Shown: piece after piece, positions 14,910-34,441 of the stretch
How the letters are laid out: the number at the start of each line of letters is the position of its first letter
How positions within the stretch are numbered: position 1 is the stretch's first letter
From: a virus
Direction: 5' to 3' (one strand)
Length of the DNA: 34,441 nucleotides
Virus genome (UHGV): UHGV-0156988
The notes under the pieces: model-generated
Seen by the model: the letters and a program-made list of their open reading frames with translations, nothing else
What the model was told of the DNA's origin: nothing
The model's database searches: none
Made by a program: the position numbers and the translations under genes

Positions 14910-14925
14910 AGTCTAATCTCACCTT

Positions 14926-15823: not shown

Positions 15824-15837
15824 CCGGAGTCATTGAA

Positions 15838-17517: not shown

Positions 17518-17810
17518 CAGATTACGAAGACGATCAACTGAAAGAAGAAAACGACCGTAAGCAACGTGACATGGCACAGCGTGAAATTGATGACATTCGC
17601 TTTGTCATGAGCAGTGAACAGGGGCGTCGCGTTGTCTGGTCGGTGCTGGAGAAAGGCCGTGTGTTTTCCGCTATCTCACCGATGGACGCTATGGCAATGG
17701 CATTTAATGAGGGGCAACGCAATCTGGCGCTGGAACTGTTTCAGCGCGTTATGGCGCATTGCCCTGAACAGTATTTGAAGATGGCCAAAGAGGCCAGTGA
17801 ACAGGAGTGA
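17514..17810 (+). CDS. Hypothetical protein
   Basis: 98 aa; ATGA overlap with portal stop. Confidence 0.5.
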   Translation: MTDYEDDQLKEENDRKQRDMAQREIDDIRFVMSSEQGRRVVWSVLEKGRVFSAISPMDAMAMAFNEGQRNLALELFQRVMAHCPEQYLKMAKEASEQE

Positions 17811-17812
17811 TC

Positions 17813-18508
17813 ATGAATTTATTTGAGCGTTTGCTGTATAGCCGTCTTTGCAATGAGCAACCAGTCGATGGTGGAGCAGCTCCGGCTGCGTCAGAACCGT
17901 CAGCGCCTGCAGGTGATAACCCTGCTCCAGTTGGTGATCCATCACAACAGGAAGGTGATAAGCCACAACCTGTTGCTGATGGCGATAAACCTGCTGATGA
18001 CAAAAAGCCTGAAAACGATAAGCAGGATGAAAAAAAGGACGGCGATAAACCAGATGGTGCGCCTGAGAAGTACGAGTTTCAGGCTGCCGAAGGCGTAGAG
18101 CTGGATACAGAAGCATTGAAGGAATTCGAGCCGGTGGCGCGAGAACTTAACCTGACCAACGAGCAAGCGCAAAAGCTGGTTGATGCTTATCCGAAGATTC
18201 TGGCAGGTGTTCAGCAGCGCCAGGCAGAAGCCTGGCAGAAAACAACCGAGCAGTGGGCTGCGGATGTAAAAGCTGACAAAGAAATCGGTGGCGACAAGTT
18301 GATTTCTAACCTTAGCGCCGCACAGCGTGCGCTTGACCAGTTCGGGACACCTGAACTCAAAGAATATCTGAACACCACCGGGCTGGGTAATCACCCTGAT
18401 CTGGTCAAAACGTTCGTGAAAATCGGAAAGGCGATGTCTGAAGATGGCATGGTCACCGGTGGTAATGAAGGCCAGCGTAGTGCGGCCGAAGTGCTCTATG
18501 GCAAATAA
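17813..18508 (+). CDS. Scaffolding protein candidate
   Basis: About 231 aa, acidic and Pro/Lys/Asp-rich N-terminus, helical C-terminus; between portal and capsid genes; SD CAGGAG. Confidence 0.5.
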   Translation: MNLFERLLYSRLCNEQPVDGGAAPAASEPSAPAGDNPAPVGDPSQQEGDKPQPVADGDKPADDKKPENDKQDEKKDGDKPDGAPEKYEFQAAEGVELDTEALKEFEPVARELNLTNEQAQKLVDAYPKILAGVQQRQAEAWQKTTEQWAADVKADKEIGGDKLISNLSAAQRALDQFGTPELKEYLNTTGLGNHPDLVKTFVKIGKAMSEDGMVTGGNEGQRSAAEVLYGK

Positions 18509-18516
18509 GAGAGGAA

Positions 18517-19509
18517 ATGACAATGGCTGTTAAAGGCTTAACTGCGCTAACGCTGGCTGACTGGGGTAAGCGCGTCGATCCAAACGGGAAAGTCGATAAG
18601 ATTATCGAGCTTCTCGGTCAAACTAACCCGATCCTTCAGGATATGCCTTTTGTCGAAGGGAACCTTCCTACCGGACACCGAACCACCATTCGTTCTGGTT
18701 TACCTTCAGCTACCTGGCGTTTGCTGAACTATGGCGTACAGCCAAGCAAATCAACCACAGTGCAGGTAACCGATTCCGTTGGCATGCTGGAAACCTATGC
18801 TGAAGTCGATAAATCACTGGCTGATCTGAACGGCAATACCGCTGAATTCCGCCTGTCTGAAGACCGCGCATTTATTGAAGCGATGAATCAGCAGATGGCG
18901 CAGACGCTGTTTTATGGTGATTCCAGCGTTAACCCTCAGCAGTTTATGGGACTGTCCTCCCGCTATTCCAGCCTGTCTGCGGGTAATGCTCAGAACATCA
19001 TTGATGCTGGTGGCACGGGTACAGATAACACCTCAATCTGGTTAGTGGTGTGGGGCGAAAACACCGTGCATGGCATCTTCCCGAAAGGGAAGAAGGCTGG
19101 CATCCAGATGGAAGATAAAGGCCAGGTGACACTGGAAGATGCTAATGGCGGCAAGTACGAAGGCTATCGCACCCATTACAAATGGGACAACGGACTTGCT
19201 CTGCGTGACTGGCGTTATGTTGTTCGCATTGCAAACATCGATGTCAGCAATCTTTCAGAACCTTCCTCTGCCGCAAATATTGCGAAGTTGATGGTTAAAG
19301 CACTGCATCGCATTCCAAACCGTGGAATGGGTCGCCCGGTGTTCTACATGAACCGCACTGTATGCCAGGCTCTTGATCTGCAATCTCTGGAGAAAACATC
19401 TCTGGCGATCAGCGTAAAAGAGACAGAAGGCGAGTGGTGGACTTCATTCCGTGGTGTACCAATCCGTGAAACTGATGCGCTTCTGGAAACAGAAGCCCGT
19501 GTGGTGTAA
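18517..19509 (+). CDS. Major capsid protein
   Basis: 330 aa after scaffold-like gene, SD GAGAGGAA; followed by stem-loop and strong terminator downstream. Confidence 0.65.
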   Translation: MTMAVKGLTALTLADWGKRVDPNGKVDKIIELLGQTNPILQDMPFVEGNLPTGHRTTIRSGLPSATWRLLNYGVQPSKSTTVQVTDSVGMLETYAEVDKSLADLNGNTAEFRLSEDRAFIEAMNQQMAQTLFYGDSSVNPQQFMGLSSRYSSLSAGNAQNIIDAGGTGTDNTSIWLVVWGENTVHGIFPKGKKAGIQMEDKGQVTLEDANGGKYEGYRTHYKWDNGLALRDWRYVVRIANIDVSNLSEPSSAANIAKLMVKALHRIPNRGMGRPVFYMNRTVCQALDLQSLEKTSLAISVKETEGEWWTSFRGVPIRETDALLETEARVV

Positions 19510-19560
19510 CGCCTGTTATTAACCAGTGGGTCTGTTACGACCCACTAATGGAGAAAGAAG

Positions 19561-19998
19561 ATGATCACCGACAAACTGTTGATGTTCTCCGAAGCACAGG
19601 CGGTAACTGATACCGCGGCTTCTACTGACGTAATCGATCTAGGTCCAATTGATGGAAATCGTCGCGATATCGGCGTGGGTTACCCGCTTGAGTTTTGGGC
19701 GCTGGTTAACGAAGCCGCCACGGCAAGTGGTGAGGCAACTGTAAACATCCAGTTGCAGACGAGTGAGAATAACAGCTCATGGTCCACTATTTATGATAGT
19801 GGCGCACTGGCAAAGGCTACCCTGACAGCAGGTAAACGAGTTGTTTCTGCAAAGGTGCCTGCCGGTGTTCAGCGATATCTGCGTGTTAACTACTCCGTCG
19901 CAACTGGCCCACTAACGGCCGGCAAATTCACTGCGGGTATTAGTCTGGATGTTGATGCCAATACACCGTACCCGATCCGCTCAAAAGTAACTGGTTAA
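19561..19998 (+). CDS. Hypothetical virion protein (possible capsid decoration protein)
   Basis: 145 aa, Thr/Ala/Gly-rich, directly after capsid gene with SD GGAGAAAG. Confidence 0.45.
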   Translation: MITDKLLMFSEAQAVTDTAASTDVIDLGPIDGNRRDIGVGYPLEFWALVNEAATASGEATVNIQLQTSENNSSWSTIYDSGALAKATLTAGKRVVSAKVPAGVQRYLRVNYSVATGPLTAGKFTAGISLDVDANTPYPIRSKVTG

Positions 19999-19999
19999 G

Positions 20000-20344
20000 G
20001 TGATTTCGATGTCAGGTGAGAAACCAAGATACCGCGTTCTGCGCCTCTCTCATATCCATAACACACTGTGGCCGGAGGGGGCAGAAATCGAATACGAAGG
20101 TGAGCCTGGTAGCGCACTGGAACCTGTTAACGATGCAGCCAGACAGGCAAAAGCAAAGGTAGCAGGAAAGGTGACTATGGCAGCAACCAGCACCAAAATC
20201 ATCAACGATGTGTCAGATGATGGTGAACTGGATAAGCTCCGTGAAGAGTACGAATTGCTCTTTAGCGAGAAGCCACACCATAACGCCAAAGCCGAAACGC
20301 TCCGCGAGAAGATCGCAGATAAGCGTAAAGAACTTGGCGTGTAA
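20000..20344 (+). CDS. Hypothetical protein
   Basis: 114 aa with charged helical C-terminus; followed by strong terminator. Confidence 0.45.
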   Translation: MISMSGEKPRYRVLRLSHIHNTLWPEGAEIEYEGEPGSALEPVNDAARQAKAKVAGKVTMAATSTKIINDVSDDGELDKLREEYELLFSEKPHHNAKAETLREKIADKRKELGV

Positions 20345-20360
20345 GCCTCGCGAATCAGAC

Positions 20361-20382
20361 AAGGGGCTTCGGCCCCTTTATT
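20361..20382 (+). terminator. Rho-independent terminator (UUCG tetraloop) after capsid gene block
   Basis: AAGGGGC-TTCG-GCCCCTT followed by TATT. Confidence 0.7.
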
Positions 20383-20394
20383 GCAGGAGTGTAT

Positions 20395-20718
20395 ATGGAA
20401 CTCGTAAACCTCAAAACCGGCACTGACAGCTACCAGGATGAGAGCGGAGAAACCAGAACTCGCGATGAATACCCGTGGGGGCTGTGCATCACTCTTAATA
20501 ACGACACATTGAATAAGCTGAAGGCGCAACCTCAGGGCGTCGGAACAGAAGTGATGATAACTGCAAAGGCTGTTATTCGAGGCCTGTCTGCCAGAGAAAC
20601 TGACGATGGTGTTAATCGCAGCGCCGATCTGCAGATCACTGATATGGCGATCGCTCCTGTTTCCGGGGATGTAGAAAAATCAGCGGCTGAAACTCTGTAC
20701 GGTAACGGAGGTGAGTGA
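20395..20718 (+). CDS. Hypothetical protein
   Basis: 107 aa; SD AGGAG 5 nt upstream of ATG 20395. Confidence 0.45.
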   Translation: MELVNLKTGTDSYQDESGETRTRDEYPWGLCITLNNDTLNKLKAQPQGVGTEVMITAKAVIRGLSARETDDGVNRSADLQITDMAIAPVSGDVEKSAAETLYGNGGE

Positions 20719-21323
20719 TGGCCTCTGTAGTAGAGATCTGTAATCGTGCGCTGTCCAATATTGGCAATAGTCGCAGCATTAACAGCCTGACGGAAGCCAG
20801 CAAGGAAGCGGGGGAATGTTCGCTGCACTTTGAGGCCTGCCGTGATGCTGTGCTTTCTGATTTTGACTGGAACTTTGCTACCAAACGCGTGGCGCTTGCA
20901 GATACGAGCAATCCACCGCCTGACTGGGAATATGCGTACCAGTACCCGTCAGATTGTCTGCGCATTACTGAAATTATGCTTCCTGGTGTGCGCAATCCAA
21001 CAGCAGCAATGCGCGTTCAGTACGAAGTTGGTGCAGACACCGACGGAACAGGGAAGTTGATCTACACAGACCAGCCGCAGGCATGGCTCAAGTATGTCTC
21101 TCGCGTTTCAGATGTGAACATGTTTGATGCCATTTTTATGGAGGCGTTGGCCTGGCGTCTTGCGGCAGCTATTAACATGGCGCTGACTGGGAATGCAGAC
21201 CTCGGTACGTTTGCCCTCAATATGTACAATCGCGTGATTCTTAGTGCTGGCTCGCATAGCCAGAATGAATCACAGGAACCACAGCCACCGGTTGATGAGT
21301 TTACCATTGCGAGGTTGTCCTGA
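20718..21323 (+). CDS. Tail tubular protein A candidate (T7 gp11-like position and size)
   Basis: 201 aa versus about 196 aa for T7 gp11; SD GGAGGTGAG; 1-nt stop/start overlaps on both sides. Confidence 0.45.
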   Translation: MASVVEICNRALSNIGNSRSINSLTEASKEAGECSLHFEACRDAVLSDFDWNFATKRVALADTSNPPPDWEYAYQYPSDCLRITEIMLPGVRNPTAAMRVQYEVGADTDGTGKLIYTDQPQAWLKYVSRVSDVNMFDAIFMEALAWRLAAAINMALTGNADLGTFALNMYNRVILSAGSHSQNESQEPQPPVDEFTIARLS

Positions 21324-23794
21324 TGGCTATCAGTTGGATCCAGCCCAGCTTTGCCGGTGGTGAGATTGGGCCGTCGTTGTACGGACGTATCGACATGGCG
21401 AAGTACCAGGTGGCATTGCGCAAGTGCGATAACTTTATCGTGCGGCAGTATGGCGGCGTTGAGAATCGACCTGGTACGCGTTTTGTCGGTGCCGCCAAAT
21501 ACCCAAATCGGAAATGCCGCCTGATCCCGTTCCAGTTCTCGACGGTTCAGACTTATGCTCTGGAGTTCGGACACCAGTACATGCGTGTTATCAAAGATGG
21601 TGCGTTGGTGCTGAACAGCAGTAATGTTATTTATGAAATTGCCACGCCATATACTGAAGCCGATCTGTTCCTAATTAAATTCACGCAAAGCGCAGACGTG
21701 CTTACGCTGGTTCATCCGGCATACCCGCCGAAAGAGTTGCGACGTTATGCGCATGACAACTGGCAACTGGTTGATGTGGTAACGAAGAACGGGCCATTTG
21801 AAGATATCAATATTGACGAGTCAGTGACGGTTTATGCCAGCGCCAGCACCGGGACAATTACGTTAACGGCAAGCGCCTCTATTTTTGGCGCGGAGCAGGT
21901 AGGCAAATTGTTCTATCTGGAACAGCCAGCAGTGGATTCAGTACCGGTATGGGAAACCAGTAAGAGTACGTCGATTGGCGATATTCGCCGTGCAGGCAGT
22001 AACTACTATCGCGCCGTTACAGCAGGCAAAACAGGTACTTTGCGCCCTTCGCATACAGAAGGCACATCATGGGATGGCTGGGGCGGATCCAGTGATGATG
22101 ATACTGGCATTGAGTGGGAATATCTGCACAGTGGTTTTGGCATTGCCCGTATCACTGCTGCAAATGGCACTACTGCAACTGCCGAGGTGATTTCCTATAT
22201 CCCTTCGCAGGTCGTTGGCGAGGATAATGCCAGCTATAAATGGGCTAAATATGCCTGGAACAGTGTTAATGGTTATCCTGGCACTGTTGTTTATTATCAA
22301 CAACGTCTTTACTTCGCCGCATCGACAGCGTTCCCTCAGACTATCTGGGCCAGCCGTACTGGGGATTATAAGGATTTTGGCAAAAGCAATCCTACGCAGG
22401 ATGACGACAGAATTATCTACACCTATGCCGGGCGTCAGGTTAATGAGATCCGCCACCTGATTGATGTCGGTTCGCTGGTGGCACTGACTTCCGGAGGTGA
22501 GTACGTCATCACCGGTGACCAGAACAAAGTGTTAACCCCATCATCATTTGCATTCAGCTCTCAGGGATCAAATGGCTCAAGCAACGTCCCACCAATTGCT
22601 GTGGCGAATATTGCTCTGTTCGTCCAGGAGAAAGGCAGTGTTGTCCGTGATCTGGCCTACTCATTCGATGTTGATGGCTATCAGGGGAACGACCTGACCA
22701 TCCTTGCCAATCATCTTTTTCAGAAGCACAGCATTGTTGACTGGTGCTTCTCGATTGTCCCTTACTCCAGCGCCTTCTGCATTCGTGATGACGGTAAATT
22801 ACTGGTGATGACCTATTTGCGTGATCAACAGGTTTTTGCATGGGCACCACAGTCCAGTACCGGAAAATATGAAAGCACGTGCAGTATCAGCGAAGGCAAT
22901 GAAGATGCGGTGTATTTCGTCGTTAACCGAACCGTTAACGGGCAAACAGTGAGATACATCGAGAGACTGTCCAGCCGTTTATTTACCAGCGATGAAGATG
23001 CTTTCTTTGTTGATTCTGGCCTTAGCTATGATGGAAGAAATACGTCTGACAGAACGATGACCATCACTGGTGGTTCTGGTGAATGGGATTACCGTGCGGA
23101 ATATACAATCAGTGTTTCTGGTGGTGCGTACTTCACCAGTAGTGATGTCGGCGCGCAACTACAGTTCCCTTATACCGGAACTGATCCTGGTACTGGCGAT
23201 GAAGTGTCAAAAGAATTACGTTGCGACATTATTTCTGTAACCAGCAATACCGCTGTAGTGGTTCGTGCTAACAGGAACGTCCCGCCATCCCTCAGGAATG
23301 TGGCCACCACGAACTGGCAGATGGCGCGCCGGACATTTGGAGGCCTGTCTCATCTTGAAGGGCAGACCGTAAACATTCTCTCTGATGCGAACGTGGAACC
23401 ACAGAAAGTGGTTTCCGGAGGTGCCGTCACGCTGGAATCTCCGGGGGCTGTAGTGCACATCGGCCTGCCAATAACTGCCGAATTCGAAACACTGGATATC
23501 AACATTAACGGACAGGAAACGCTGCTGGACAAAAAACAGGTGATCCCGTCCGTTACTCTGGTTGTGAATGCCAGTCGCGGCATCTGGGCGACTACGCCCA
23601 GCGGTAAATGGTACGAATATCCACAGCGTGAATTCGAGTTCTACGATGATCCTGTTGATGACGCTACCGGAAAAGTAGAAGTGAAACTGGACAGTAACTG
23701 GGGCAAAAACGGACGTGTAAAAATCCGTCAGCTTGACCCGTTGCCGCTGTCTGTTCTTGCCGTTATTCCTCGCCTTACTGTTGGGGGATTCTGA
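21323..23794 (+). CDS. Tail tubular protein B candidate (T7 gp12-like position and size)
   Basis: 823 aa versus about 794 aa for T7 gp12; translationally coupled to flanking genes. Confidence 0.5.
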   Translation: MAISWIQPSFAGGEIGPSLYGRIDMAKYQVALRKCDNFIVRQYGGVENRPGTRFVGAAKYPNRKCRLIPFQFSTVQTYALEFGHQYMRVIKDGALVLNSSNVIYEIATPYTEADLFLIKFTQSADVLTLVHPAYPPKELRRYAHDNWQLVDVVTKNGPFEDINIDESVTVYASASTGTITLTASASIFGAEQVGKLFYLEQPAVDSVPVWETSKSTSIGDIRRAGSNYYRAVTAGKTGTLRPSHTEGTSWDGWGGSSDDDTGIEWEYLHSGFGIARITAANGTTATAEVISYIPSQVVGEDNASYKWAKYAWNSVNGYPGTVVYYQQRLYFAASTAFPQTIWASRTGDYKDFGKSNPTQDDDRIIYTYAGRQVNEIRHLIDVGSLVALTSGGEYVITGDQNKVLTPSSFAFSSQGSNGSSNVPPIAVANIALFVQEKGSVVRDLAYSFDVDGYQGNDLTILANHLFQKHSIVDWCFSIVPYSSAFCIRDDGKLLVMTYLRDQQVFAWAPQSSTGKYESTCSISEGNEDAVYFVVNRTVNGQTVRYIERLSSRLFTSDEDAFFVDSGLSYDGRNTSDRTMTITGGSGEWDYRAEYTISVSGGAYFTSSDVGAQLQFPYTGTDPGTGDEVSKELRCDIISVTSNTAVVVRANRNVPPSLRNVATTNWQMARRTFGGLSHLEGQTVNILSDANVEPQKVVSGGAVTLESPGAVVHIGLPITAEFETLDININGQETLLDKKQVIPSVTLVVNASRGIWATTPSGKWYEYPQREFEFYDDPVDDATGKVEVKLDSNWGKNGRVKIRQLDPLPLSVLAVIPRLTVGGF

Positions 23795-24258
23795 TGATCG
23801 ATGTTCGAATTATTCCCGCTACCGAAGAGCATCTTCAGATGATTTTGCCGGATGTTCGTCAGGCTGATATTGACGAACTGTATGCGGTATCACTGATGAC
23901 TACCGAAGATGCGCTGCGTGTTGGTCTGCGTACTGCGACTATGGCCTGGTCAGGGTTCGCGAACGGAGAACTGGTAACCATGTTTGGCGTATCTCCGGCG
24001 TCAATGATCGGTGGCAATGGTACGCCCTGGCTGGTCGGAACCAGCCGTATTGAAAAATATCAGAAGACATTTCTGCGCCACTGCCGCCCTGTATTGCAGC
24101 AGATGCTGGCAGTTTATCCGCACCTGGAAAACTACGTCGACGAGCGAAACCATGTTGCCAAAGCATGGCTGCACTGGCTTGGATTCAGGCTTGAAGAAGC
24201 CGCGCCTTATGGTGCTCTTGGTCTTAATTTCCACAGATTTCACATGGAGAGAAAATAA
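23794..24258 (+). CDS. Internal virion protein candidate (gp13-like position)
   Basis: 154 aa; TGATG overlap with upstream gene. Confidence 0.4.
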   Translation: MIDVRIIPATEEHLQMILPDVRQADIDELYAVSLMTTEDALRVGLRTATMAWSGFANGELVTMFGVSPASMIGGNGTPWLVGTSRIEKYQKTFLRHCRPVLQQMLAVYPHLENYVDERNHVAKAWLHWLGFRLEEAAPYGALGLNFHRFHMERK

Positions 24259-24803
24259 TGTGCGATCCGGTTATTGCTGGTGGCGCAATGCTCGCCATGA
24301 GTGGCATTCAGGCATACACCCAGTACCAACAGGGAAAGTATGCCTCGAAGGTTGCAGAAGCGAACGCAGATATAGCCACTGCTCAGGCAAATGATGCAAT
24401 AAACAGAGGTAACGCTGAAGCTGAGCAACGGCGCAGAGAGCTCCGACAGCGGCTTGGTACACAGGCGGCGACAATGGGGGCGACCGGCGCTGATTTATCT
24501 ACCGGTAACGCGCTGGATATATTTGGCGACACTGCCCAGTTTGGCGCCCTTGATTCGCTGACGACGGTGAATAACGCGCAACGCGAGGCTTACGGTTATC
24601 AGGTTCAGGCTGCCAATTATAAAGCAGAAGCCAGTTCAGCCCGTAAACAGGGGAATGTGGGAGCAGCAACAACATTGCTCACTGCTCCTCTGAAGGCATA
24701 CGGTGCGTACCAGATGTTTGGTGGGACGTGGAGTCCGTTTACTCAAAGCACTCCTGCGCCAATCGGGGCAGCAGCAGGAACCAGATTACCCGGAGGATTA
24801 TAA
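24258..24803 (+). CDS. Internal virion protein B, T7 gp14-like
   Basis: 181 aa; N-terminus MCDPVIAGGAMLAMSGIQA resembles T7 gp14 N-terminus as recalled. Confidence 0.55.
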   Translation: MCDPVIAGGAMLAMSGIQAYTQYQQGKYASKVAEANADIATAQANDAINRGNAEAEQRRRELRQRLGTQAATMGATGADLSTGNALDIFGDTAQFGALDSLTTVNNAQREAYGYQVQAANYKAEASSARKQGNVGAATTLLTAPLKAYGAYQMFGGTWSPFTQSTPAPIGAAAGTRLPGGL

Positions 24804-27316
24804 TGCCAGTCGTACCAACAGTATCCGGACGCCAGGTTGAGAGCCGTGGAGTTCAGTCAGCAGGCTTGCAGACGTTTTCTCAGCCAGGTATTGGTGATGC
24901 TTTTGTTCGGGCAGGGACAGAGGCAATTGATGTTTTAGGGCAGGCAAAACAGCGTGCCAATATCGCTCTGGCTCAGGATGCTTCTCTTAGCTTAAGCCAG
25001 ATAAGCAGCGATCTGCTGAATAACCCTGAAACAGGTTTGCTTAACCTGAAAGGGAAAAATGCTATTGGAAAAGGTCAGGAGTATACGCAGCAGTTTGATG
25101 CCCAGGTCGAGCAACTGGCTATGTCGCTGCCGGATGAACAAGCTCGTAATGCTTTCATGCAGCAGGCGCAGCAGCAGCGCATTCAGTTCACTACGCAGGC
25201 CGGGCGGCACGAGATAGGGCAAATAAATGCCTACGAAGAAGGCCAGTTTCAGGCGACGCTGCTGAACAATGGTAAAAATGCCGCAGCATTGTATGGCGAC
25301 AACGCCGCATACGTATTGGCTAATAAGCAAACTTTCCAGCAAATTGAGGATTATGGCATTGCGCATGGCTGGAGCGACGAGCAAATCCAGGCCAAGAAAA
25401 TCGAGTTTAAAGAGAAGGTTGCTGATGCCGCATTGTCCCAGTGGTCGGCAAACAATGCGACCGCATTCATCCAAAGTAATGGCGAGTTAAGTGATACTGC
25501 TGCTGGAGCTCGCCGTGCTGTAACAGATAGTGGCTCTTCCGAGCGTGTCCGTGGCATACGCAACAATAACCCCGGAAATCTCGAATACAGCAAAACTAAT
25601 CCGTGGGTAGGCCAGACCGGTGATGATGGTAGATTTGCTAAATTCGAAACACCTGAACACGGGATTCGTGCATTAGGGCGGAACCTGATGTCGTATCAGC
25701 GGCAGGGTATTGATACCGTCAGCGAGATAATTAATCGCTGGGCACCGCCTACTGATAAAAATGACACTATGTCGTATATCAAAGCAGTGTGCGAACAACT
25801 TGGCGTTTCTGCTGATGAGCCTCTCGATGCATCTAATCCTGATACCCTGAAGGCGCTTTGTGCAGCCATTATCCATCATGAGAACGGTAGCCAGCCATAC
25901 AGTGATCAGCAGTTAACTGCTGGTGTCAGTGCAGCACTTGGTTTATCAACAATTCCAACCAACACCAAACGCTATACCGGTAATGCAGCATTCGATGCGG
26001 CATCTCCTGAGGCGCAGGCAAGTTTTATGCGACAGGCGGATCAACTGCGTCGGCAGCAGCAGGCTGAATATAAAACGATGATTGACAGCCAGGTTCGCGA
26101 TGCGACAGCTGCGTATATGCGTGGCGTTGAATTTCCTAACCCACCTGGTGAGGCTGATTTTATTGCAGCTTATGGAGTCAGAGAAGGAAACCTGCGATAT
26201 ACCGAGTTCAGAAATACGCAAATCGCCGGACAGTATATAGGCTCTTTCCGCAACATGCCGACAAGCAGCATTACAGCATATGTTGAGCAATTACGCCCGG
26301 ATACTGGTGAGACAGGGGAGGGTTATGCGGCACGAGCCGCTCTTTATGACAACGTTGTGTCGGCTGCAAGTCAGGTGATAAAGCAGCGACAGGCTGATCC
26401 TGTACAGTTCTCTCTTGCCGCCGGACAGGCAAAGCCTATCGACATGAGCAATAAGGATAACTTTGGACAGAGCGTTGCCTTGCGTGCTACTCAGGTCAGT
26501 GACCTTGCTAAGTCATATGGCACTCCACTGACGTTCTTTTCCAAAGACGAGGCCAATCAGATCGGTGTTTTCTTTCGTGATGCGCCCGTTTCCCAACAGG
26601 CAGCATATCTCGATACCATCAGGCAGAGCACTGGTGGTGGGCAGGTGTATATGTCAGCACTACAGCAGATCAGTGCCAACGCTCCATCTGCTGCCGTTGC
26701 CGGGATACTGATGGATAAGCCAGGTGGTATTTTGGCAGAAAAAAACTGGTTTAATCCGGATGTTTCCGTGTCTCCTGAAACCGCTGCGCAGACAATTCTT
26801 GCTGGCGCGGCGGCTCGTAAAGGTACTGATGACGCGAAAGGTATTCCGATGCCTAAAGATGCTGATCTCCGCCTTGAGTTTTCTGACATGGTGAAGGATG
26901 CATTTGCTGGTGATGCTCAGGGGGCATCAATGGCATACGAGATCGCAAAGGACTATTACGCTGGTGTGATGGCGAAAAAAGGCGTGATATCAGGCGAAAT
27001 TGACACTGATATCTGGAAACAGGCTGTTAACGTAGCTACAGGTGGCGTGCATGACTATAACGGAATGGGGAATGTCCTTTTGCCGTGGGGAATGTCTGCA
27101 GAGCAATTCGATAAGCAGGTTAATCAGGCTTGGAATGAACAAGTTGTCGGCTCCGGGATAAAAACACCGCCTGGTCAGTATGGTTTGCAAAGTTACGGCG
27201 ATAGTCAGTACCTGGTGAAACTTGGTACTGGTTATCTGCTGAAAGATGATGGTTCTCCCGTTGTTCTTAATCTGACACAGAAACGTCAGAGATTCTCCGG
27301 AGATATTCCGCAATGA
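24803..27316 (+). CDS. Internal virion / ejection protein, gp15-like
   Basis: 837 aa from ATG 24803 (TAATG overlap); Gln/Ala-rich helical regions; embedded segment GIRNNNPGNLE...W.G at 25540-25900. Confidence 0.55.
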   Translation: MPVVPTVSGRQVESRGVQSAGLQTFSQPGIGDAFVRAGTEAIDVLGQAKQRANIALAQDASLSLSQISSDLLNNPETGLLNLKGKNAIGKGQEYTQQFDAQVEQLAMSLPDEQARNAFMQQAQQQRIQFTTQAGRHEIGQINAYEEGQFQATLLNNGKNAAALYGDNAAYVLANKQTFQQIEDYGIAHGWSDEQIQAKKIEFKEKVADAALSQWSANNATAFIQSNGELSDTAAGARRAVTDSGSSERVRGIRNNNPGNLEYSKTNPWVGQTGDDGRFAKFETPEHGIRALGRNLMSYQRQGIDTVSEIINRWAPPTDKNDTMSYIKAVCEQLGVSADEPLDASNPDTLKALCAAIIHHENGSQPYSDQQLTAGVSAALGLSTIPTNTKRYTGNAAFDAASPEAQASFMRQADQLRRQQQAEYKTMIDSQVRDATAAYMRGVEFPNPPGEADFIAAYGVREGNLRYTEFRNTQIAGQYIGSFRNMPTSSITAYVEQLRPDTGETGEGYAARAALYDNVVSAASQVIKQRQADPVQFSLAAGQAKPIDMSNKDNFGQSVALRATQVSDLAKSYGTPLTFFSKDEANQIGVFFRDAPVSQQAAYLDTIRQSTGGGQVYMSALQQISANAPSAAVAGILMDKPGGILAEKNWFNPDVSVSPETAAQTILAGAAARKGTDDAKGIPMPKDADLRLEFSDMVKDAFAGDAQGASMAYEIAKDYYAGVMAKKGVISGEIDTDIWKQAVNVATGGVHDYNGMGNVLLPWGMSAEQFDKQVNQAWNEQVVGSGIKTPPGQYGLQSYGDSQYLVKLGTGYLLKDDGSPVVLNLTQKRQRFSGDIPQ

Positions 27317-29115
27317 GTTACTTTGGCCTTAATCCAGTAAACCAGAATCAGCAGCTTGACGAAGCAGCATCAAATCCAGCTGGCTTTAACAGCGATGTTG
27401 GTTTTTTCGACAATGCTGTAGGAGCGGCATTGTCTGGTTTGTACTCCGGGCTGGTGGCAAAGCCAGATCAGTTGCTATGGGCAGGGATGGATAAAATCGT
27501 ATCCCCGATTGCTCAGTTTGTTAACGAAAACACCTCGCTCAATGACACTTCAGTTTCATACATTGCTGAGCAGAGAAAACTAGCAGAGCAGCAGGTTAAG
27601 CGGCTGACGCCTGATGCCGCGACAACCGGAACCGCCGGGCAGGTCCTTTATGGGTTGTTCGATATGGGCGGGCAGGCTGTTGTTGGTACAACGCTCGGTG
27701 GTCCGGTCGGAGGTGCTGCGGCGGTAACTTCGCTACAGGGTTTTTCTGAGTTTGAACGGCTGACAGCACAGGGTGTTGATTTCAGGACGGCGCAGGAAGC
27801 GGGATTAGTGCAGGGTATTACTGCTGGTGCCGGAACACTGATCCCTATGAGCCTCGGGTTACGTGCTGGTGGTGCGCTGGCGGAAGGTGTGGCGGCTCAG
27901 CTTGCGCGGACGGGTGAAAGTTCAGTGCGACGCGCCGCAGCAACAGCAGTACGTGCAACGCCAGATATTGCCTATGCCGCAGGTACAAATATTGCGTTCG
28001 GTATGGCACAGCGTGGGCTTACTGCAAAAACGCTTCGTGATGGTGGCTATAGCGAAATGGCTAATCAGTATGATGTGTTGGATCGACAGGCAATTGCTAT
28101 TGATGCTGTTCTTGGAGTGGCGTTTGGTGGTGTCGGCAGATTTATTAACTCTCGCGGCGAGTCTACAAGCGCACCAAATTTTTCACCAGTTGATGTCGAT
28201 GCTGCACTGGCGGCGAATGCCGCTCATCATGCTGAAATTGATATTGCTCCCGGTGTGCCGATCAACGTGCTTTCGCGTAATTCGCACATTCAGGCTCTGC
28301 GAAAAGCCATGTCTGATGTTAGCCAGGGGATACCTGTAGACGTTGCCAGCATTGTTGAGTCTGCATCTTTCAGTGAAATTCCTGGGCGCAAGAGTCTGCT
28401 TTCTCAGGCAGTTAATGAGGCTCTGTCATCTGTAGATGATGGAGTAACGGCGCGCGCTATAGAAAATCGGTTGCTTGAAGAACAGGCCGCGCAGCTTTTG
28501 CCGCGTGGCGATAGACAGGTTTACCAGTCTGAAATCGCTAATAGCCAACGAATTATTGAAAATCTCACTGAACAGCGCGCACAAATTCTTGCAGAAGAGC
28601 CAACCGGTAGCGGTAAAGCTTTGTCTCGTGCTCGATCAGATAAACAGGCCAGACTTCGCGATATTGATCAACGAATCCGGCAGGCACAAGAACGCCTGGA
28701 GTTTTCCCGTAACGCGTTGGCACCGCACGAGCCTGGCGGTCAGTTTTTTGAAGCTCGAGCAGAACTGGCACGACGACAGCAGGCAGAAAGTGAACTTAAT
28801 GCTCAGGCTGTTTCATTCTATAAAACAGCAGAGGTCAGGACGCCAGACGAAGTAGCTCCTTTTGAGCCCGGTAAGATATTGCAACAGACAGAACAAAAAA
28901 TGATGGCAGATCCGGCAGGAGATATTGATCTGCGTATAGCTGAAGACTCGCTGCTTGAATCTCCGGACATGATAATCACCGTGCTGGATGATGATGGTAA
29001 TCCACAATCGCGCAGTGCGCGTGAAGTACTGGATGAAGCGAACAGGGAAAGTGAGCAGGCAATACAGGATTCCAGCCTGTTTGATGTTGCTGTGGCGTGT
29101 TTCTTGAGAGGTTAA
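27313..29115 (+). CDS. Internal virion / ejection protein (possible N-terminal part of a split gp16 analogue)
   Basis: 600 aa; ATGA overlap with upstream gene; Ala/Gly-rich N-terminal half. Confidence 0.5.
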   Translation: MSYFGLNPVNQNQQLDEAASNPAGFNSDVGFFDNAVGAALSGLYSGLVAKPDQLLWAGMDKIVSPIAQFVNENTSLNDTSVSYIAEQRKLAEQQVKRLTPDAATTGTAGQVLYGLFDMGGQAVVGTTLGGPVGGAAAVTSLQGFSEFERLTAQGVDFRTAQEAGLVQGITAGAGTLIPMSLGLRAGGALAEGVAAQLARTGESSVRRAAATAVRATPDIAYAAGTNIAFGMAQRGLTAKTLRDGGYSEMANQYDVLDRQAIAIDAVLGVAFGGVGRFINSRGESTSAPNFSPVDVDAALAANAAHHAEIDIAPGVPINVLSRNSHIQALRKAMSDVSQGIPVDVASIVESASFSEIPGRKSLLSQAVNEALSSVDDGVTARAIENRLLEEQAAQLLPRGDRQVYQSEIANSQRIIENLTEQRAQILAEEPTGSGKALSRARSDKQARLRDIDQRIRQAQERLEFSRNALAPHEPGGQFFEARAELARRQQAESELNAQAVSFYKTAEVRTPDEVAPFEPGKILQQTEQKMMADPAGDIDLRIAEDSLLESPDMIITVLDDDGNPQSRSAREVLDEANRESEQAIQDSSLFDVAVACFLRG

Positions 29116-29120
29116 ATTAA

Positions 29121-31595
29121 ATGAGACAGGAATGTATACAAGCGGTCCAGCAGGCGGCGCAGCGCACGTTAACGGCGCGAGAAATACAGAACATTGAAGA
29201 CCGCATTTATCGAAATATGCGCTCCATTGCTCGTGATGACCCGATGTCGTGGCGACAACTTTCCGAATCAGAACGGTTGTATCGTGCAGCACAATTGGCA
29301 TCTGAAGAATTACAGCGAGAAGCGGCATTAAAGAAACGTCGTGTGGCCCTCACTATAGCCGCACGTCAGAGATTGGATAAATTTATCAATAGCTATCAAG
29401 GGGCTGATGGGAAACTTGGCGCTCTTAACCGTACTATTGCTTTTAATGCAGACGGTAAATCGAATTTCCTCTCTGTTGAATCCAGAACAAAAGCCACCCG
29501 TGATTATGCATTGAGTCAATTGCAGGAGGCATTCGAAGCAGTTGATCCTCGCTTTTTTGGTCTGTTTGAAGATGAAGCGGGCGTACGTGACCTGGTATAT
29601 GAAATGCGGGGGCAAAATACTGGCAATGCTAAAGCAAGAAAAGGTGCTAAGGCGTGGAGAGAAGTTACAGAGCTGCTGCGCCGCCGGTTTAATGATGCTG
29701 GTGGGGACATTGGCTATCTCGAAAACTGGGGGATCCCTCAACATCATTCTATGGAAAAGGTTGGGGCGGTATCAAAAGATAAATGGGTTAGCGATGTTAT
29801 AGGTAAGCTGGATCGCAAATATTATACCCGAGCCGATGGACAACTGATGAACGATGCCGAGTTGTCTGCATTTCTTGGAGAGGCTTATAACACGATCGCT
29901 ACTGGTGGGCTGAATAAGCTTACTGATACCGGAATGCGAATTTCCGGCGCACGTGCTAACCGTGGTAATGCATCACGACAGATACATTTCAAAGATGCAG
30001 ATTCCTATCTGCAATATCAGCAACTTTATGGCGATCGCTCTCTATGGGAAATCATGGTCGGTCACCTTGAAGGTATCAGTAAAGATATTGCACTGGTGGA
30101 AACATATGGCCCAAACCCCGATCATGTTTTCCGCTCTCTTCTTGATCAGGTGAAGGCAGAAACGGCAACAGCTAACCCGAGTAAAACCGGTAAAGTCGAG
30201 CGGCTGGCGAACAACACAGAGAATCTGTACAACTTTATTTCCGGAAAGACACAGCCTGTAGCGAATCCGCACATCGCGCGATGGTCTGACAATATCCGCA
30301 ACTGGCTGGTTGCCAGCAGACTCGGATCCGCGTTGCTGTCATCGTTCTCTGATCTTGGAACCATGTATCTGTCTGCGAAGGTTACCAACCTTCCAATGAA
30401 CCAGTTATTCCGCAACCAGCTTGAAGCTATGGACCCAACGAACCGTACAGAACTTGCGCGGGCGCGCCGCGCTGGTCTGGCGATGGAATCTCTACTTGGC
30501 AGCGTTAACCGCTGGGCGATGGATAATATGGGGCCGTCTGTGTCTCGTTGGGCTGCAACGGCGGTAATGCGTGCCAGTGGGCTTACAGCATGGTCAGATG
30601 CGCACAAGCGCGCCTATGGCGTAACCATGATGGGAAGCCTGGGAGAAGTAGTGTCACGGACACCAGACCTTCGTAGCCTCGATGATTCTGATTTTCGTAT
30701 CCTGAAAAGCAAAGGGATTACTGACACAGACTGGAGCGTATGGAAGCTGGCGCAACAGGAGGACTGGGGGAACGGCAATAATACGATGCTGACACCGGAA
30801 AGCATTATGCGTATCCCTGATTCAGCAGTTAAACATCTTGGTGAGCCTGAACGCGTGAAATTTGAGGCAATGCGTAAACTGCTCGGTGCCGTAACTGAAG
30901 AAGTTGATATGGCTGTTATTACACCGGGAGCACGTGAGCAACTGATAACCGGTTCTGGTATTCAGCGTGGAACATGGAAAGGTGAATTAACGAGAAGTGT
31001 TTTCCTGTTTAAATCGTTCCCTATCTCGGTGGTTATGCGTCACTGGTCACGCGCTATGGGTATGCCGTCTGCTGGTGGGCGTGCGGCATATATTGCGACG
31101 TTTATTGCCAGTACGACCATTCTTGGCGCTTTGTCGCAGCAACTTAACGACCTTGCGTCTGGTCGTAATCCTCGCGAGATGACAGGAGAAGATGCTGCTA
31201 AATTTTGGCTTGGTGCTCTACTGAAAGGTGGTGGTCTTGGCCTTTACGGTGACTTTTTATTGTCAGATCACACTAGGTACGGAAGCGGCGCGCTGGCGTC
31301 GATGCTTGGCCCGGTAGCTGGTCTGGTTGATGACGTAGTGAAGATTGCTCAGGGCATACCGTTAAATGCTGTGGAAGGGAAGAGTGAGCAGACTGGTGGT
31401 GATCTGGTGAAGCTGGGGAAAGGTTTGATGCCAGGTGCGAATCTCTGGTACTTAAAGGCGGCTCTCGATCATATGATCTTTAACCAGATGCAGGAGTATT
31501 TTTCACCAGGCTATTTGCGTAAAATGGAGCAACGTTCGAAGAAAGAGTTTAACCAGACATACTGGTGGCGACCTCAGGATGTCACTCCGCAATAA
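29121..31595 (+). CDS. Internal virion / ejection protein (possible C-terminal part of a split gp16 analogue)
   Basis: 824 aa; last large gene before tailspike. Confidence 0.5.
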   Translation: MRQECIQAVQQAAQRTLTAREIQNIEDRIYRNMRSIARDDPMSWRQLSESERLYRAAQLASEELQREAALKKRRVALTIAARQRLDKFINSYQGADGKLGALNRTIAFNADGKSNFLSVESRTKATRDYALSQLQEAFEAVDPRFFGLFEDEAGVRDLVYEMRGQNTGNAKARKGAKAWREVTELLRRRFNDAGGDIGYLENWGIPQHHSMEKVGAVSKDKWVSDVIGKLDRKYYTRADGQLMNDAELSAFLGEAYNTIATGGLNKLTDTGMRISGARANRGNASRQIHFKDADSYLQYQQLYGDRSLWEIMVGHLEGISKDIALVETYGPNPDHVFRSLLDQVKAETATANPSKTGKVERLANNTENLYNFISGKTQPVANPHIARWSDNIRNWLVASRLGSALLSSFSDLGTMYLSAKVTNLPMNQLFRNQLEAMDPTNRTELARARRAGLAMESLLGSVNRWAMDNMGPSVSRWAATAVMRASGLTAWSDAHKRAYGVTMMGSLGEVVSRTPDLRSLDDSDFRILKSKGITDTDWSVWKLAQQEDWGNGNNTMLTPESIMRIPDSAVKHLGEPERVKFEAMRKLLGAVTEEVDMAVITPGAREQLITGSGIQRGTWKGELTRSVFLFKSFPISVVMRHWSRAMGMPSAGGRAAYIATFIASTTILGALSQQLNDLASGRNPREMTGEDAAKFWLGALLKGGGLGLYGDFLLSDHTRYGSGALASMLGPVAGLVDDVVKIAQGIPLNAVEGKSEQTGGDLVKLGKGLMPGANLWYLKAALDHMIFNQMQEYFSPGYLRKMEQRSKKEFNQTYWWRPQDVTPQ

Positions 31596-31604
31596 GGAAG
31601 TGTT

Positions 31605-31781
31605 GTGTTTTTAATTATTTTGAGTGTGATAATTTCTGGTGGGTTGTTATTTATTGACCGCTACAAATATTTTCTTAACCCTCAGACTCAAGCTATTTGC
31701 TGGTTCATCTTTGTTGTGCAGGGAATAGTTCTTGTTGCAAGCCTTATTGAGGGGAGGCCTCTGATTTTTACTGGGTAAATA
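31605..31781 (+). CDS. Small hydrophobic peptide, two predicted TM segments
   Basis: Not in ORF track; GTG 31605 (or 31626) after AGGAAG; about 58 aa, almost entirely hydrophobic. Confidence 0.25.
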
Positions 31782-31790
31782 GGTGACTAC

Positions 31791-32087
31791 ATGCAAGCTA
31801 TAGGATTCATTGTTTATATCGTCGTTGGTCTTTTTCAGTTGGCAGCAATTATGGCTGGGCTTGAATCATGGTGGGGATTGCACTGGATAATTGCAGCCCC
31901 CATTGCTTTCATCGTGAGCTATATTCCATTTGTTGGAGCGATTGTTGGTATGGTTGGCGCTGTGGATGTATGGCGGTGGGAGTGGTGGCAGGCTGGCCTT
32001 CTCTTCTTTGGTGGGATCATCTTTGCTATTGTCTGCGGTGGAATGTCATCATTTTTCGAATGGCTATCATTCAGAAAAAGAGCGTGA
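31791..32087 (+). CDS. Small integral membrane protein, three predicted TM segments
   Basis: 98 aa, SD AGGTGA; Gly/Ile/Val/Trp-rich hydrophobic stretches with basic C-terminus FRKRA. Confidence 0.6.
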   Translation: MQAIGFIVYIVVGLFQLAAIMAGLESWWGLHWIIAAPIAFIVSYIPFVGAIVGMVGAVDVWRWEWWQAGLLFFGGIIFAIVCGGMSSFFEWLSFRKRA

Positions 32088-32095
32088 CATGTCAC

Positions 32096-32113
32096 AGGCC
32101 GCTCTTGCGGCCT
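32096..32113. terminator. Bidirectional terminator hairpin between convergent genes
   Basis: AGGCCGC-TCTT-GCGGCCT; TTTAAATTT on plus side, CTCTTTTTCT on minus side; abuts GTGACATGTCAC at 32084-32095. Confidence 0.55.
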
Positions 32114-32119
32114 TTAAAT

Positions 32120-32377
32120 TTACCGGGTTTGTTTTCGTAATTGTTCGGCACAATAGTCGAGATGTGTTTGCAGATCCCGCATAGACATCTGTGAGCTGGT
32201 GACGTAGTTAATCAGTGCAGTCAGTTCGGCAAGTGGGCCATCGACATTAAATCCATCCTTATCGAGATCCCGGAGTAATTTCATCAAGTGCGATCCTTCC
32301 ACCAGTGACCTGACGCCTCCCGGCGTGTGAATCCTTTCGGTAAATCCGTCTTCCAGTGGATAGTGATACTGCTGCAT
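32120..32377 (-). CDS. LexA-controlled small acidic protein, candidate antirepressor
   Basis: 85 aa from MQQYHY with SD GGAGAAG; LexA box at 32398-32417 overlaps a TGtATAAAT extended -10; own terminator. Confidence 0.5.
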   Translation of the reverse strand: MQQYHYPLEDGFTERIHTPGGVRSLVEGSHLMKLLRDLDKDGFNVDGPLAELTALINYVTSSQMSMRDLQTHLDYCAEQLRKQTR

Positions 32378-32397
32378 CTTAATCTTCTCCATGCAAT

Positions 32398-32417
32398 AAC
32401 TGTATATTTATACAGTA
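32398..32417 (-). promoter_or_regulatory. LexA (SOS) box
   Basis: Plus-strand AACTGTATATTTATACAGTA: CTGT-N8-ACAG with AT-rich spacer, one or two mismatches from TACTGTATATATATACAGTA. Confidence 0.7.
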
Positions 32418-32454
32418 GCAAATAATTTGTTTGCTATCCAGCACGTTTTGCAAA

Positions 32455-32469
32455 TTACCAGAAAGGTAA
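32455..32469 (+). promoter_or_regulatory. Operator site upstream of tailspike gene
   Basis: Perfect TTACC-AGAAA-GGTAA between the LexA-controlled gene and the tailspike gene. Confidence 0.45.
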
Positions 32470-32575
32470 TATCTATTCGTATCCATAGTTTTTCTATGCA
32501 TATATGGTTTTTCAGGTAATAGAATGGATGGGACTGCATGCGCGATGGGCGCACAAGCTATCCGGAGATAATGAC

Positions 32576-33889
32576 ATGACGGTCTCAACCGAAGTCGACC
32601 ATAACGAATACACCGGGAATGGCGTCACGACGATATTCCCTTATACCTTCAGAATTTTTCAGAAGTCTGATCTGGTTGTTCAGGTTGTAGACCTGGATGA
32701 AAACTTGACAGTATTGACACTTGATACAGATTACACGGTAACTGGTGCAGGCGGTTACGCTGGTGGGAATGTCACCCTGACGACAGCGCTCGTAAGCGGT
32801 TACCAGATATCTATATCTCGAGAGCTTCCAGTTACCCAGGAAACAGATCTTCGCAATCAGGGTAAGTTCTTTGCAGAAGTTCATGAGGATGCTTTTGATA
32901 AACTGACAATGCTGATCCAACAGGTTCGCAGCTGGTTTAGCCTTGCGCTTCGTAAACCATCATTTATTGCAAACTATTATGATGCGCTGAACAATTACAT
33001 TCGTAATCTAAGAGACCCAGAAAGGCCTCAAGATGCAGCAACCAGAAACTATGTTGATACAGTATCAACGGCAAACCTCAATCGAACACTTCGTACGCCT
33101 GAACCTATCCCAGAACTACCTGGAGTTGAAGAGCGTAAAAATAAACTTGTTGCTATGGATGATTCTGGTAATCCTATTATGGTATTGCCTGAATCAGGAT
33201 CTGCATCGGATGTTCTCATTGAACTTGCCAAGCCAACTGGGGCAGGGTTGATAGGCATTAAACCAGGAGGAAATGTTCAACAAGCGCTATATTACGTTAC
33301 TCCCGAACAGTTCGGGGCAATCGGAGATGGCACTCTTCATCTATTATCAGAAAAATATTCTACCCTAACTGACGCGCAGTCAGTGTATCCGCTTGCAACA
33401 AGTTTGTCTCAGTCAATTGATTGGGCTGCTATGCAAACAGCTGATAGTGTTGCTCGAGAATTAAAATGTTCGGTCCGTTGTCCAACGTTGAAAAAATACA
33501 GATTCTCATCCCTTGACACGTTAATGCTGGATATCGACAGTTGCTTTATTGGCGGTCCGCAATCTGATCATTTGCATGGGACAATGATAATCAAAGACAA
33601 ACCACCGGTGACAGCATCAACAAATATTGGCGATATCTGCATAGTCAAGGTCAAAAAGGCTTCCGACACTGTATCAACCAATGGATTTGTCAATGGAGTG
33701 GTATTCCAGGGTTTTTCTCTTGAGTGGGCAAATGTTGCGTGGATGTCCGCTGTTAAAGGTGATTTGTCAATTTGCCTTCATATGAACGATGCGATCAAAG
33801 CAAAAGTAGACGTCAGCGTATGGGGCGGGGAATTTGGGGTATACGGGTATGGCTGCTGGGGAATGGTTGGTACTTTGCCGAATGCATGA
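32576..33889 (+). CDS. Tailspike / tail fibre protein with T7 gp17-like N-terminal adaptor; probably 3-prime truncated
   Basis: Start at ATG 32576 (SD GGAG); N-terminal NEYTGNGVTTIFPYTF motif; later PEQFGAIGDG region suggests start of a beta-helix; only 438 aa and ends at a junction with unrelated sequence. Confidence 0.65.
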   Translation: MTVSTEVDHNEYTGNGVTTIFPYTFRIFQKSDLVVQVVDLDENLTVLTLDTDYTVTGAGGYAGGNVTLTTALVSGYQISISRELPVTQETDLRNQGKFFAEVHEDAFDKLTMLIQQVRSWFSLALRKPSFIANYYDALNNYIRNLRDPERPQDAATRNYVDTVSTANLNRTLRTPEPIPELPGVEERKNKLVAMDDSGNPIMVLPESGSASDVLIELAKPTGAGLIGIKPGGNVQQALYYVTPEQFGAIGDGTLHLLSEKYSTLTDAQSVYPLATSLSQSIDWAAMQTADSVARELKCSVRCPTLKKYRFSSLDTLMLDIDSCFIGGPQSDHLHGTMIIKDKPPVTASTNIGDICIVKVKKASDTVSTNGFVNGVVFQGFSLEWANVAWMSAVKGDLSICLHMNDAIKAKVDVSVWGGEFGVYGYGCWGMVGTLPNA

Positions 33890-34355
33890 AGAGATAATCG
33901 GCATGATCGGCCGACACGTGCCTGAGTTTGATATTGCGGCAGTTCCAAAGCGTTTCCATCGCGTCGGAGAGTTCTACCTGCTCGAGGTCGATATTTTCCA
34001 TGTCGCGGAACATCTTCGGCGCGTCGATTCGGGTGTGCTTCATGCGCACATCGTCGGCGTACCAGATGGCGGCGCGGGCGCCGGGCGAAAAGCGGCCGCC
34101 CTCGAGCACCACATGTTTGGCGTGCCAGAAGGGGTATTTGCCTTCAAAGAGGCATTCTCGGGCAGTGATGTTTTCGACGTGCTTTAAGGCGGATTCGCCC
34201 GGGTGAATGACAACGTGGTCGAGCTCCGCGCTGCGGAGCGCAAAAAGCGGGCGCTCACCGCCGTATTCGACATTTTGGAGGATCTGCATTTTTTGTCCTG
34301 TTTGAATGGTGAGGCTCACCCGAAAAAAAGCGATGCCGGCATCTCTTTGGGGCAT
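33813..34355 (-). CDS. Hypothetical protein in a compositionally distinct segment (possibly a truncated flanking gene)
   Basis: 180-aa ORF; 3-prime end overlaps tailspike ORF by 77 nt; segment looks more GC-rich than the prophage by eye; alternative start at 34289. Confidence 0.35.
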   Translation of the reverse strand: MPQRDAGIAFFRVSLTIQTGQKMQILQNVEYGGERPLFALRSAELDHVVIHPGESALKHVENITARECLFEGKYPFWHAKHVVLEGGRFSPGARAAIWYADDVRMKHTRIDAPKMFRDMENIDLEQVELSDAMETLWNCRNIKLRHVSADHADYLFMHSAKYQPFPSSHTRIPQIPRPIR

Positions 34356-34441
34356 CGTCGGGCAGCGATGATGAATCGCTTCAAACTCTAAGACCGCAGG
34401 CTTTGGCCCGCCCTGCTGATCGCCGCAAAGAACTGTACGAT

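Follow-up and report, generated by a model that had tools for sequence, protein, structure and literature searches.

The window analysed here, a 34,441-nt stretch of DNA comprising the whole of UHGV virus genome UHGV-0156988, ends in an unexpected way: close to its right end a phage tailspike gene stops early and runs into an unrelated gene on the opposite strand. We asked what brought these two sequences together. An initial annotation of the locus had offered two explanations, namely a deletion or recombination breakpoint that truncated both genes, or the boundary between a prophage and its host chromosome. Alternatively, the join could have arisen outside of any cell, in the library or in the assembly. 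The evidence assembled below favours the last of these by a wide measure: we consider it very probable that the junction is a library or assembly chimera, in which an E. coli prophage was joined to Sutterella wadsworthensis DNA, and that it does not reflect biology. The features of the window on which this argument turns are as follows.

1..33877, plus strand: E. coli prophage, phiV10/epsilon15-like, starting 142 nt inside attL and running to the broken tailspike (integrase, colinearity).
32576..33877, plus strand: first 434 of the 759 codons of the prophage tailspike gene (protein and DNA identity to E. coli copies).
33813..33876, minus strand: spurious tail of the minus-strand ORF (...KYQPFPSSHTRIPQIPRPIR), in fact tailspike coding sequence read in antisense.
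33877..33878, no strand: breakpoint (three-way alignment, 1 shared base).
33877..34289, minus strand: 5' part of the S. wadsworthensis DUF3737 gene, codons 1-138 of 283 (Pfam, amino acid and DNA identity).
33878..33889, plus strand: junction-made end of the tailspike ORF, Pro-Asn-Ala-stop, an antisense reading of the Sutterella gene.
34290..34441, minus strand: native Sutterella azlD-DUF3737 intergenic region, identical to strain DSM 14016, with azlD beyond the window end.

The abrupt junction suspected from the sequence is real. A three-way alignment of the E. coli parent, the window and S. wadsworthensis placed the breakpoint to a single base, at 33877/33878. The E. coli parent matches the window up to and including 33877 (...GGTACTTTG), and Sutterella matches it from 33877 onward (GCCGAATGC...). 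The overlap between the parents is 1 nt, the G at 33877, and because this is the sole base common to both, the join is blunt and non-homologous. Across the BLAST searches and alignments, the Sutterella match begins at 33874-33877, while the prophage match ends at 33870-33877 in 10/10 intact relatives. Both genes are severed mid-ORF at this point and lie convergent, tail-to-tail: the tailspike gene, cut after codon 434, meets the 5' half of the DUF3737 gene. The two resulting ORFs overlap by 77 nt (33813-33889), exactly as had been claimed. The three-way alignment revealed no shared k-mer or microhomology between the parents beyond the single G, and neither this alignment nor an att-core search found an att core, a repeat or a mobile-element end at 33877/33878. 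Promoter and terminator scans returned nothing meaningful at the junction.

What is missing from the tailspike is apparent from its relatives. The ORF runs from an ATG at 32576 to a stop at 33887-33889, encoding 437 aa. The homologues begin at the same ATG (MTVSTEV...) and do not use an alternative upstream ATG at 32504. All 434 residues ahead of the break (434/434) are identical to the 759-aa E. coli proteins P0242, P0244 and P0254, which then continue RVLSCHKGIYF.... At the DNA level, identity to E. coli GCA_003686475.1 is 98.3% as far as 33877. Residues 1-238 constitute an N-terminal adaptor of the epsilon15/phiV10 type, which shares ~80-83% identity with its counterparts in phiV10, SPN1S and related phages; over residues 1-268, identity to the epsilon15 tailspike is 67%. 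Residues 226-434 form the start of a receptor-binding module, which the tail fibre of Escherichia phage S192/C1 shares at 90% identity, and the DNA at 33288-33874 is 84% identical to the S192/C1 tail fibre gene. The protein therefore carries the adaptor of an epsilon15/phiV10-type tailspike without a complete C-terminal receptor-binding domain, breaking off at residue 434 with three junction-made residues appended. The early stop described in the initial annotation, after a conserved adaptor and the start of a receptor-binding domain, is thus borne out. An intact tailspike of the same length in related phages would have counted against truncation, and none was found: full-length relatives are 753-764 aa, as compared to 437 aa and a stop here.

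The gene on the other side of the break proved to be an equally recognizable fragment. A minus-strand ORF is present at 33813-34355, but its real start is the ATG at 34289 (MQILQNVEYGGERPLF...), which is the start used by a 283-aa Sutterella protein. The fragment matches Pfam DUF3737 (PF12541; E=1e-50) over profile positions 3-137 of 275 only, as compared to 283 aa for the intact Sutterella protein. In a scan of species genomes, it was identical to the S. wadsworthensis DSM 14016 protein at 137/137 aa. At the DNA level, a BLAST alignment of window 33874-34441 with DSM 14016 gave 567/568 identical positions. The only mismatch, at 33876, falls on a base that comes from the prophage, and identity to DSM 14016 is therefore complete across 33877-34441. 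The right piece had no match among phages, plasmids or E. coli genomes. A Bacteroidota source was also considered and set aside, as Muribaculaceae/Duncaniella proteins match at merely 50-58%, compared with 100% amino acid identity and identical DNA for S. wadsworthensis. The low-complexity C-terminus that had been noticed in the minus-strand ORF, KYQPFPSSHTRIPQIPRPIR, is indeed encoded there, but it is not the real C-terminus of any protein; it is tailspike DNA read in antisense. We found no NCBIfam model for either the tailspike fragment or the DUF3737 fragment, and no solved structure matching DUF3737 by sequence.

The two sides of the break also differ sharply in composition, as had been judged by eye. 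GC content is 0.42-0.44 at 32.4-33.8 kb and 0.57-0.58 past 33.8 kb. For 33878-34441 as a whole it is 0.567, versus 0.443 in the tailspike part and 0.499 in the whole left part, and just 0.06% of equal-length windows of the left part reach 0.567. GC at third codon positions (GC3) is 0.38 in the tailspike part versus 0.745 in the minus-strand gene, and by tetranucleotide distance the right piece lies farther out than any window of the left part. The impression of a GC-rich right side therefore reflects a shift beyond chance.

The remainder of the right piece is the spacer between azlD and the DUF3737 gene, in which the earlier ORF start at 34355 falls. The gene order AzlC-AzlD-DUF3737 is found in L004 and in the metagenomic contig NODE_88 described below. 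Folding showed a terminator-like hairpin followed by a T-run on the minus strand of the spacer, at ~34323-34357. The intergenic region as a whole folds no better than its shuffles (z = -0.57), and a terminator scan over the spacer called none. A palindrome reported in this region, GGTGAGGCTCACC, is present, but at 34308-34320 rather than at 34303-34315, an offset of 5 nt. Relatives with 94-96% identity do not keep it: their left arm reads GGCCAG, and the right arm carries no compensating change. Because of this uncompensated alteration we see no sign that the palindrome has a function, and we rejected it as an operator, given its lack of conservation among close relatives.

We then considered whether the junction could be the edge of the prophage. 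Left of the break, the window is an E. coli prophage. Its integrase lies at 50-1306, and the exact integrase protein adjoins guaB-guaA in very many E. coli genomes, the insertion site being the 3' end of guaA. Window 1-24000 aligns colinearly to E. coli chromosomes, with ~98% identity and 90-93% cover. The tailspike N-terminus, together with a T7 gp14-like internal core protein encoded in the prophage, identifies the element as a phiV10/epsilon15-like temperate podophage. For its right end, we compared the window to E. coli GCA_003686475.1 and to eight Logan contigs, which carry intact copies; an intact right end lies at 104280-126559 of E. coli RDDB01000003.1. In intact copies, the tailspike gene is followed by an opposite-strand acyltransferase gene, two holin genes, an endolysin gene, DUF2514 and attR, and then by the host genes yfgI, yfgH, yfgG, pdeF, ppx and ppk. 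None of these genes is in the window, nor are attR and tailspike codons 435-759; every intact relative has the missing codons, the acyltransferase, both holins, the endolysin, DUF2514 and attR.

A shift in composition at the end of a prophage is what one would see if the GC-rich DNA were bacterial chromosome beside attR, and on this point the prophage-host boundary reading fits. Other findings speak against it. The host is E. coli, as its integrase adjoins guaA, yet the DNA beyond the break is from Sutterella, and there too the break falls within a gene. On the phage side it interrupts the tailspike ORF, with ~3.4 kb still to go before attR; in intact copies, the att core and the yfgI-yfgH-yfgG-pdeF flank sit ~3 kb to the right of the break position. 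The att core, ATTGAGTGGGAATGATT, is located at both attL (L008 9794) and attR (L100 15288) of intact E. coli copies, but it was found nowhere in the window on either strand, so the search for a direct repeat at the right end that had been proposed came back empty, and the known yfgI flank is missing as well. The junction thus lacks an att core, joins flanks from different hosts (E. coli on the left, S. wadsworthensis on the right) and does not leave the phage genes intact. The att-core and flank analyses refute the suggestion of a prophage-host boundary, and we give it virtually no chance of being correct.

To learn how widely the junction occurs, we turned to public assemblies. The exact 437-aa protein, including its junction-made ...TLPNA end, was found in two public contigs only, both from ENA. 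The first, NODE_88_length_58440_cov_6.19 (ERZ507880), is 100% identical to window 22576-34441, and the window is in fact the provirus part of this 58,440-nt contig (coverage ~6x; NODE_88 positions 22922-57362). The second is k141_40174 (ERZ19693276; 40822 nt, multi 6.998). The exact 158-aa DUF3737 fragment was found in NODE_88 only. By comparison, the intact 759-aa tailspike and the intact 283-aa DUF3737 protein are common in the protein collection. The junction sequence was absent from IMG/VR and JGI metagenome contigs, and from E. coli genomes. Two carriers might look like replication. However, NODE_88 and k141_40174 differ by one base (window 23214) in 11,519 nt, at coverages of 6.2 and 7.0, whereas the nearest other prophages differ from them by 1.5-2%. 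Given this near-identity, the two contigs come from one strain and probably from the same reads, so they do not replicate the junction independently. Among Logan contigs, we did not find the same strain with an intact tailspike; all relatives there are only 98.0-98.5% identical.

Beyond the junction, the two contigs disagree. NODE_88 stays colinear with the Sutterella chromosome for 1,578 nt, passing via azlD into azlC. Its last 70 nt have no match to Sutterella genomes, E. coli genomes or IMG/VR, and could be strain variation at the 5' end of Sutterella azlC rather than another chimera. In contrast, k141_40174 departs from Sutterella after 217 nt, at window 34094, where NODE_88 continues on it. 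This second join is again blunt, with an overlap of 0 nt. The 87-nt AT-rich tail that follows matches >120 human-gut contigs at 96.5-100% identity, in which a methyltransferase-ftsX-uppP cluster follows immediately downstream. The sources of the exact cluster proteins label them as Bacteroides (B. caccae and others). The end of k141_40174 therefore passes from E. coli prophage through 217 nt of Sutterella into Bacteroides, three taxa in ~400 nt. We considered Hi-C/3C proximity ligation as an origin and rejected it, since inspection of the alignments showed that at neither join do the parents share a restriction site such as GATC or AATT. A NotI site, GCGGCCGC, adjoins the second join, but it belongs to the Sutterella parent only, and the DNA is not cut at the NotI position.

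These observations bear directly on whether the junction formed in a cell. According to that reading, a gut E. coli acquired Sutterella (perhaps also Bacteroides) DNA by illegitimate recombination, which replaced the right end of the prophage and left it defective with a truncated tailspike. Several facts are compatible with such an event: the junction appears in two assemblies from different assemblers, the intact continuation of the tailspike is on neither contig, and end-joining with an overlap of 0-1 nt is possible in vivo. Yet the two assemblies, being of one strain and probably of the same reads, conflict 217 nt beyond the junction, and the junction occurs nowhere else in public assemblies, including any E. 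coli genome. The partner belongs to a different class of Proteobacteria and is joined bluntly, the foreign DNA has not diverged from that of the donor species, and there is no plausible cellular route to an E. coli-Sutterella-Bacteroides chain within 400 nt. Horizontal transfer should leave recipient DNA on both sides of the acquired segment. Neither contig comes back to E. coli DNA after the Sutterella segment: NODE_88 closes with Sutterella sequence and a further 70 nt that are not from E. coli, and k141_40174 closes with Bacteroides. We therefore regard in vivo recombination as very unlikely. The specific version in which the junction is a genuine molecule of a living E. coli, in which end-joining within the human gut put Sutterella DNA in place of the prophage's lost right end, we regard as extremely unlikely. 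The breakpoint claim of the initial annotation accordingly stands in part: a single breakpoint does cut both genes, and the DNA to its right is foreign and GC-richer, but an in vivo deletion or recombination event finds no support in the Sutterella partner, the blunt join or the lack of a return to E. coli.

If the junction was not made in a cell, it could have been made entirely by software, with two genomes joined at a shared repeat or k-mer and no chimeric molecule ever having existed. The junction does lie near the end of a low-coverage contig, and chimeric contigs are a known assembler error (PMC5610896). A join in a De Bruijn graph, however, needs a shared k-mer of >=21 nt, and the parents share 1 nt at the first join and 0 nt at the second. 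Because the parents lack a shared k-mer, at least one read must hold each junction. The unrelated partners and the blunt joins likewise argue for physical concatemers rather than graph errors, and a purely computational misassembly is in our estimation highly improbable.

The most likely source is therefore a chimeric molecule made during library preparation, and three observations are those expected of one. Up to the very join, the two sides are nearly identical to two different and unrelated genomes; the joins coincide with no homology, repeat or recombination site; and the junction does not recur in independent samples, with the two available assemblies diverging shortly downstream. One point runs counter to an artefact. 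Two assemblers, distinguished by their SPAdes-style and MEGAHIT-style contig names, both crossed the junction, and neither stopped at 33877/33878 or took the path of the intact tailspike. Because both crossed, the junction k-mers must have passed the filters of both assemblers, for instance by way of PCR duplicates or a local gap in coverage of the true path. We infer that the join originated in vitro and was then read through by the assemblers, rather than having originated in a cell. The sequence of events was probably as follows. The E. coli phiV10/epsilon15-like prophage was assembled correctly as far as tailspike codon 434. The contig then ran into a chimeric piece of DNA, in all likelihood short, end-repaired fragments that blunt-end ligation had strung into a concatemer during library construction, possibly carried by a few duplicate reads. 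From there it entered the chromosome of S. wadsworthensis, which lived in the same gut community. Both the 437-aa “tailspike” and the 158- or 180-aa product of the minus-strand ORF are artefactual proteins, and the junction is without biological function.

The main value of this finding lies in quality control. A public contig and the provirus record cut from it carry ~560 nt of Sutterella DNA, and two artefactual proteins, the 437-aa “tailspike” and the 158-aa “DUF3737” protein, are now in protein collections. Anyone relying on the record as it stands would be led to a truncated tailspike, to a prophage lacking its lysis cassette, to a spurious assignment of Sutterella as host of an E. coli phage, or to horizontal transfer. 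A further lesson is that short chimeric tails survive provirus trimming at gene boundaries. In the unlikely event that the junction is genuine, it would be one of the rare cases in which DNA capture between bacterial classes, at a prophage in the gut, has been seen directly.

Each part of the window can be compared to a known system. The left part resembles the phiV10/epsilon15-like (Uetakevirus-type) podophages of E. coli and Salmonella in its guaA-adjacent integrase, its gp14-like core protein and its tailspike adaptor, and up to the tailspike its gene order is colinear with that of the E. coli prophages of this type at ~98% identity. Unlike the intact prophages, it ends at tailspike codon 434 of 759, and it is without the lysis genes, the acyltransferase, DUF2514 and attR. 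The 676-aa tail fibre of S192/C1 (Deseoctovirus) has in common with the window tailspike the receptor-binding module at residues 226-434, but has a different N-terminus and extends ~325 aa past the end of the window protein. The right part corresponds to the azlC-azlD-DUF3737-aminotransferase locus of S. wadsworthensis DSM 14016 (NZ_QNRV01000008.1), to which window 33877-34441 is identical. The DUF3737 gene of that locus has 283 codons, of which the window keeps only 1-138, set tail-to-tail with phage DNA.

The junction itself finds its closest counterparts among technical chimeras. These have been documented in Illumina libraries, where rates of up to ~5% of reads are cited (PMC6983493), and chimeric contigs have been documented in viral metagenome assemblies, where they reportedly affect a few percent of contigs (PMC5610896). 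Chimeras in benchmarks are mostly between related genomes at shared sequence, whereas the partners here are unrelated and the joins blunt. In other respects the window behaves like known library and contig chimeras: unrelated genomes are joined without homology, near a low-coverage contig end, in a form that is reproducible only within the same material.

The window corresponds to positions 22922-57362 of NODE_88, with its left end 142 nt inside attL and its right end (34441) in the azlD-DUF3737 spacer. The att core was absent from both window ends (1-49 and 34441). These limits look like the product of automated provirus trimming at gene boundaries, a step that appears to have retained the chimeric DUF3737 fragment as "viral". 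Past the window end, NODE_88 diverges from the S. wadsworthensis azlC 84 nt beyond the azlC start codon, and the contig closes with the following segment.

Right end of the contig (L005, the retrieved NODE_88 stretch)
12875-12944: last 70 nt of NODE_88, past the window end

Read in frame on the minus strand, these 70 nt give MKDLVRNGFLNVPERAYTLFD..., and a search of E. coli genomes and IMG/VR returned no match to them. They represent either strain variation at the 5' end of azlC or another chimeric read.

The initial annotation had placed a palindrome in the putative upstream region of the minus-strand ORF. The palindrome, GGTGAG-G-CTCACC, does exist, at 34308-34320, 5 nt to the right of where it had been put. 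The same sequence occurs in S. wadsworthensis DSM 14016, and it is disrupted (GGCCAG...CTCACC) in two relatives at 94-96% identity.

DUF3737 loci in retrieved contigs
L002 202-5090 (Logan ERR13285567_175) and L003 202-944 (Logan SRR31518580_110398): locus with shortened DUF3737, counterpart of window 34061-34441
L004 1698-2432 (Logan SRR27904584_4367): Sutterella-like DUF3737, protein P0001

In a Sutterella relative with 94.5% DNA identity, DUF3737 is cut down to its first ~76 codons (94-aa ORF, P0060) and is directly followed by a 1535-aa ORF, for which no Pfam match was found. Because this arrangement is present in two independent samples (ERR13285567_175 and SRR31518580_110398), it is a real structural variant of the locus. 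L002 and L003 share one contig end point, 201 nt upstream of the shortened gene. P0001 has 244 aa versus 283. The ~39 missing residues were lost in frame, and the point of loss (..WNCRN | MVIRGAEIHAKDAFW..) is flanked by two beta-helix-like repeats that resemble each other, so the gap has the look of a deletion mediated by the repeats.

On the prophage side, a variable moron site lies immediately 5' of the tailspike.

Variable site (window coordinates)
32120-32392, minus strand
31791-32087, plus strand

In some E. coli relatives, an additional insert of ~2 kb with BRO-N, DUF4760 and Ant-type genes separates the 824-aa virion protein from the tailspike; the window prophage lacks it.

The tailspike (32576-33877) is a mosaic. 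Residues 1-238 form an epsilon15/phiV10-type adaptor, and residues 226-434 a module with 90% protein identity to the tail fibre of Escherichia phage S192/C1. Proteus mirabilis proteins of 760 aa are 71-74% identical across the entire fragment. This mosaicism is ordinary receptor-binding-module exchange: S192/C1 is a Deseoctovirus, an unrelated phage, with which the window tailspike has this tail fibre module in common.
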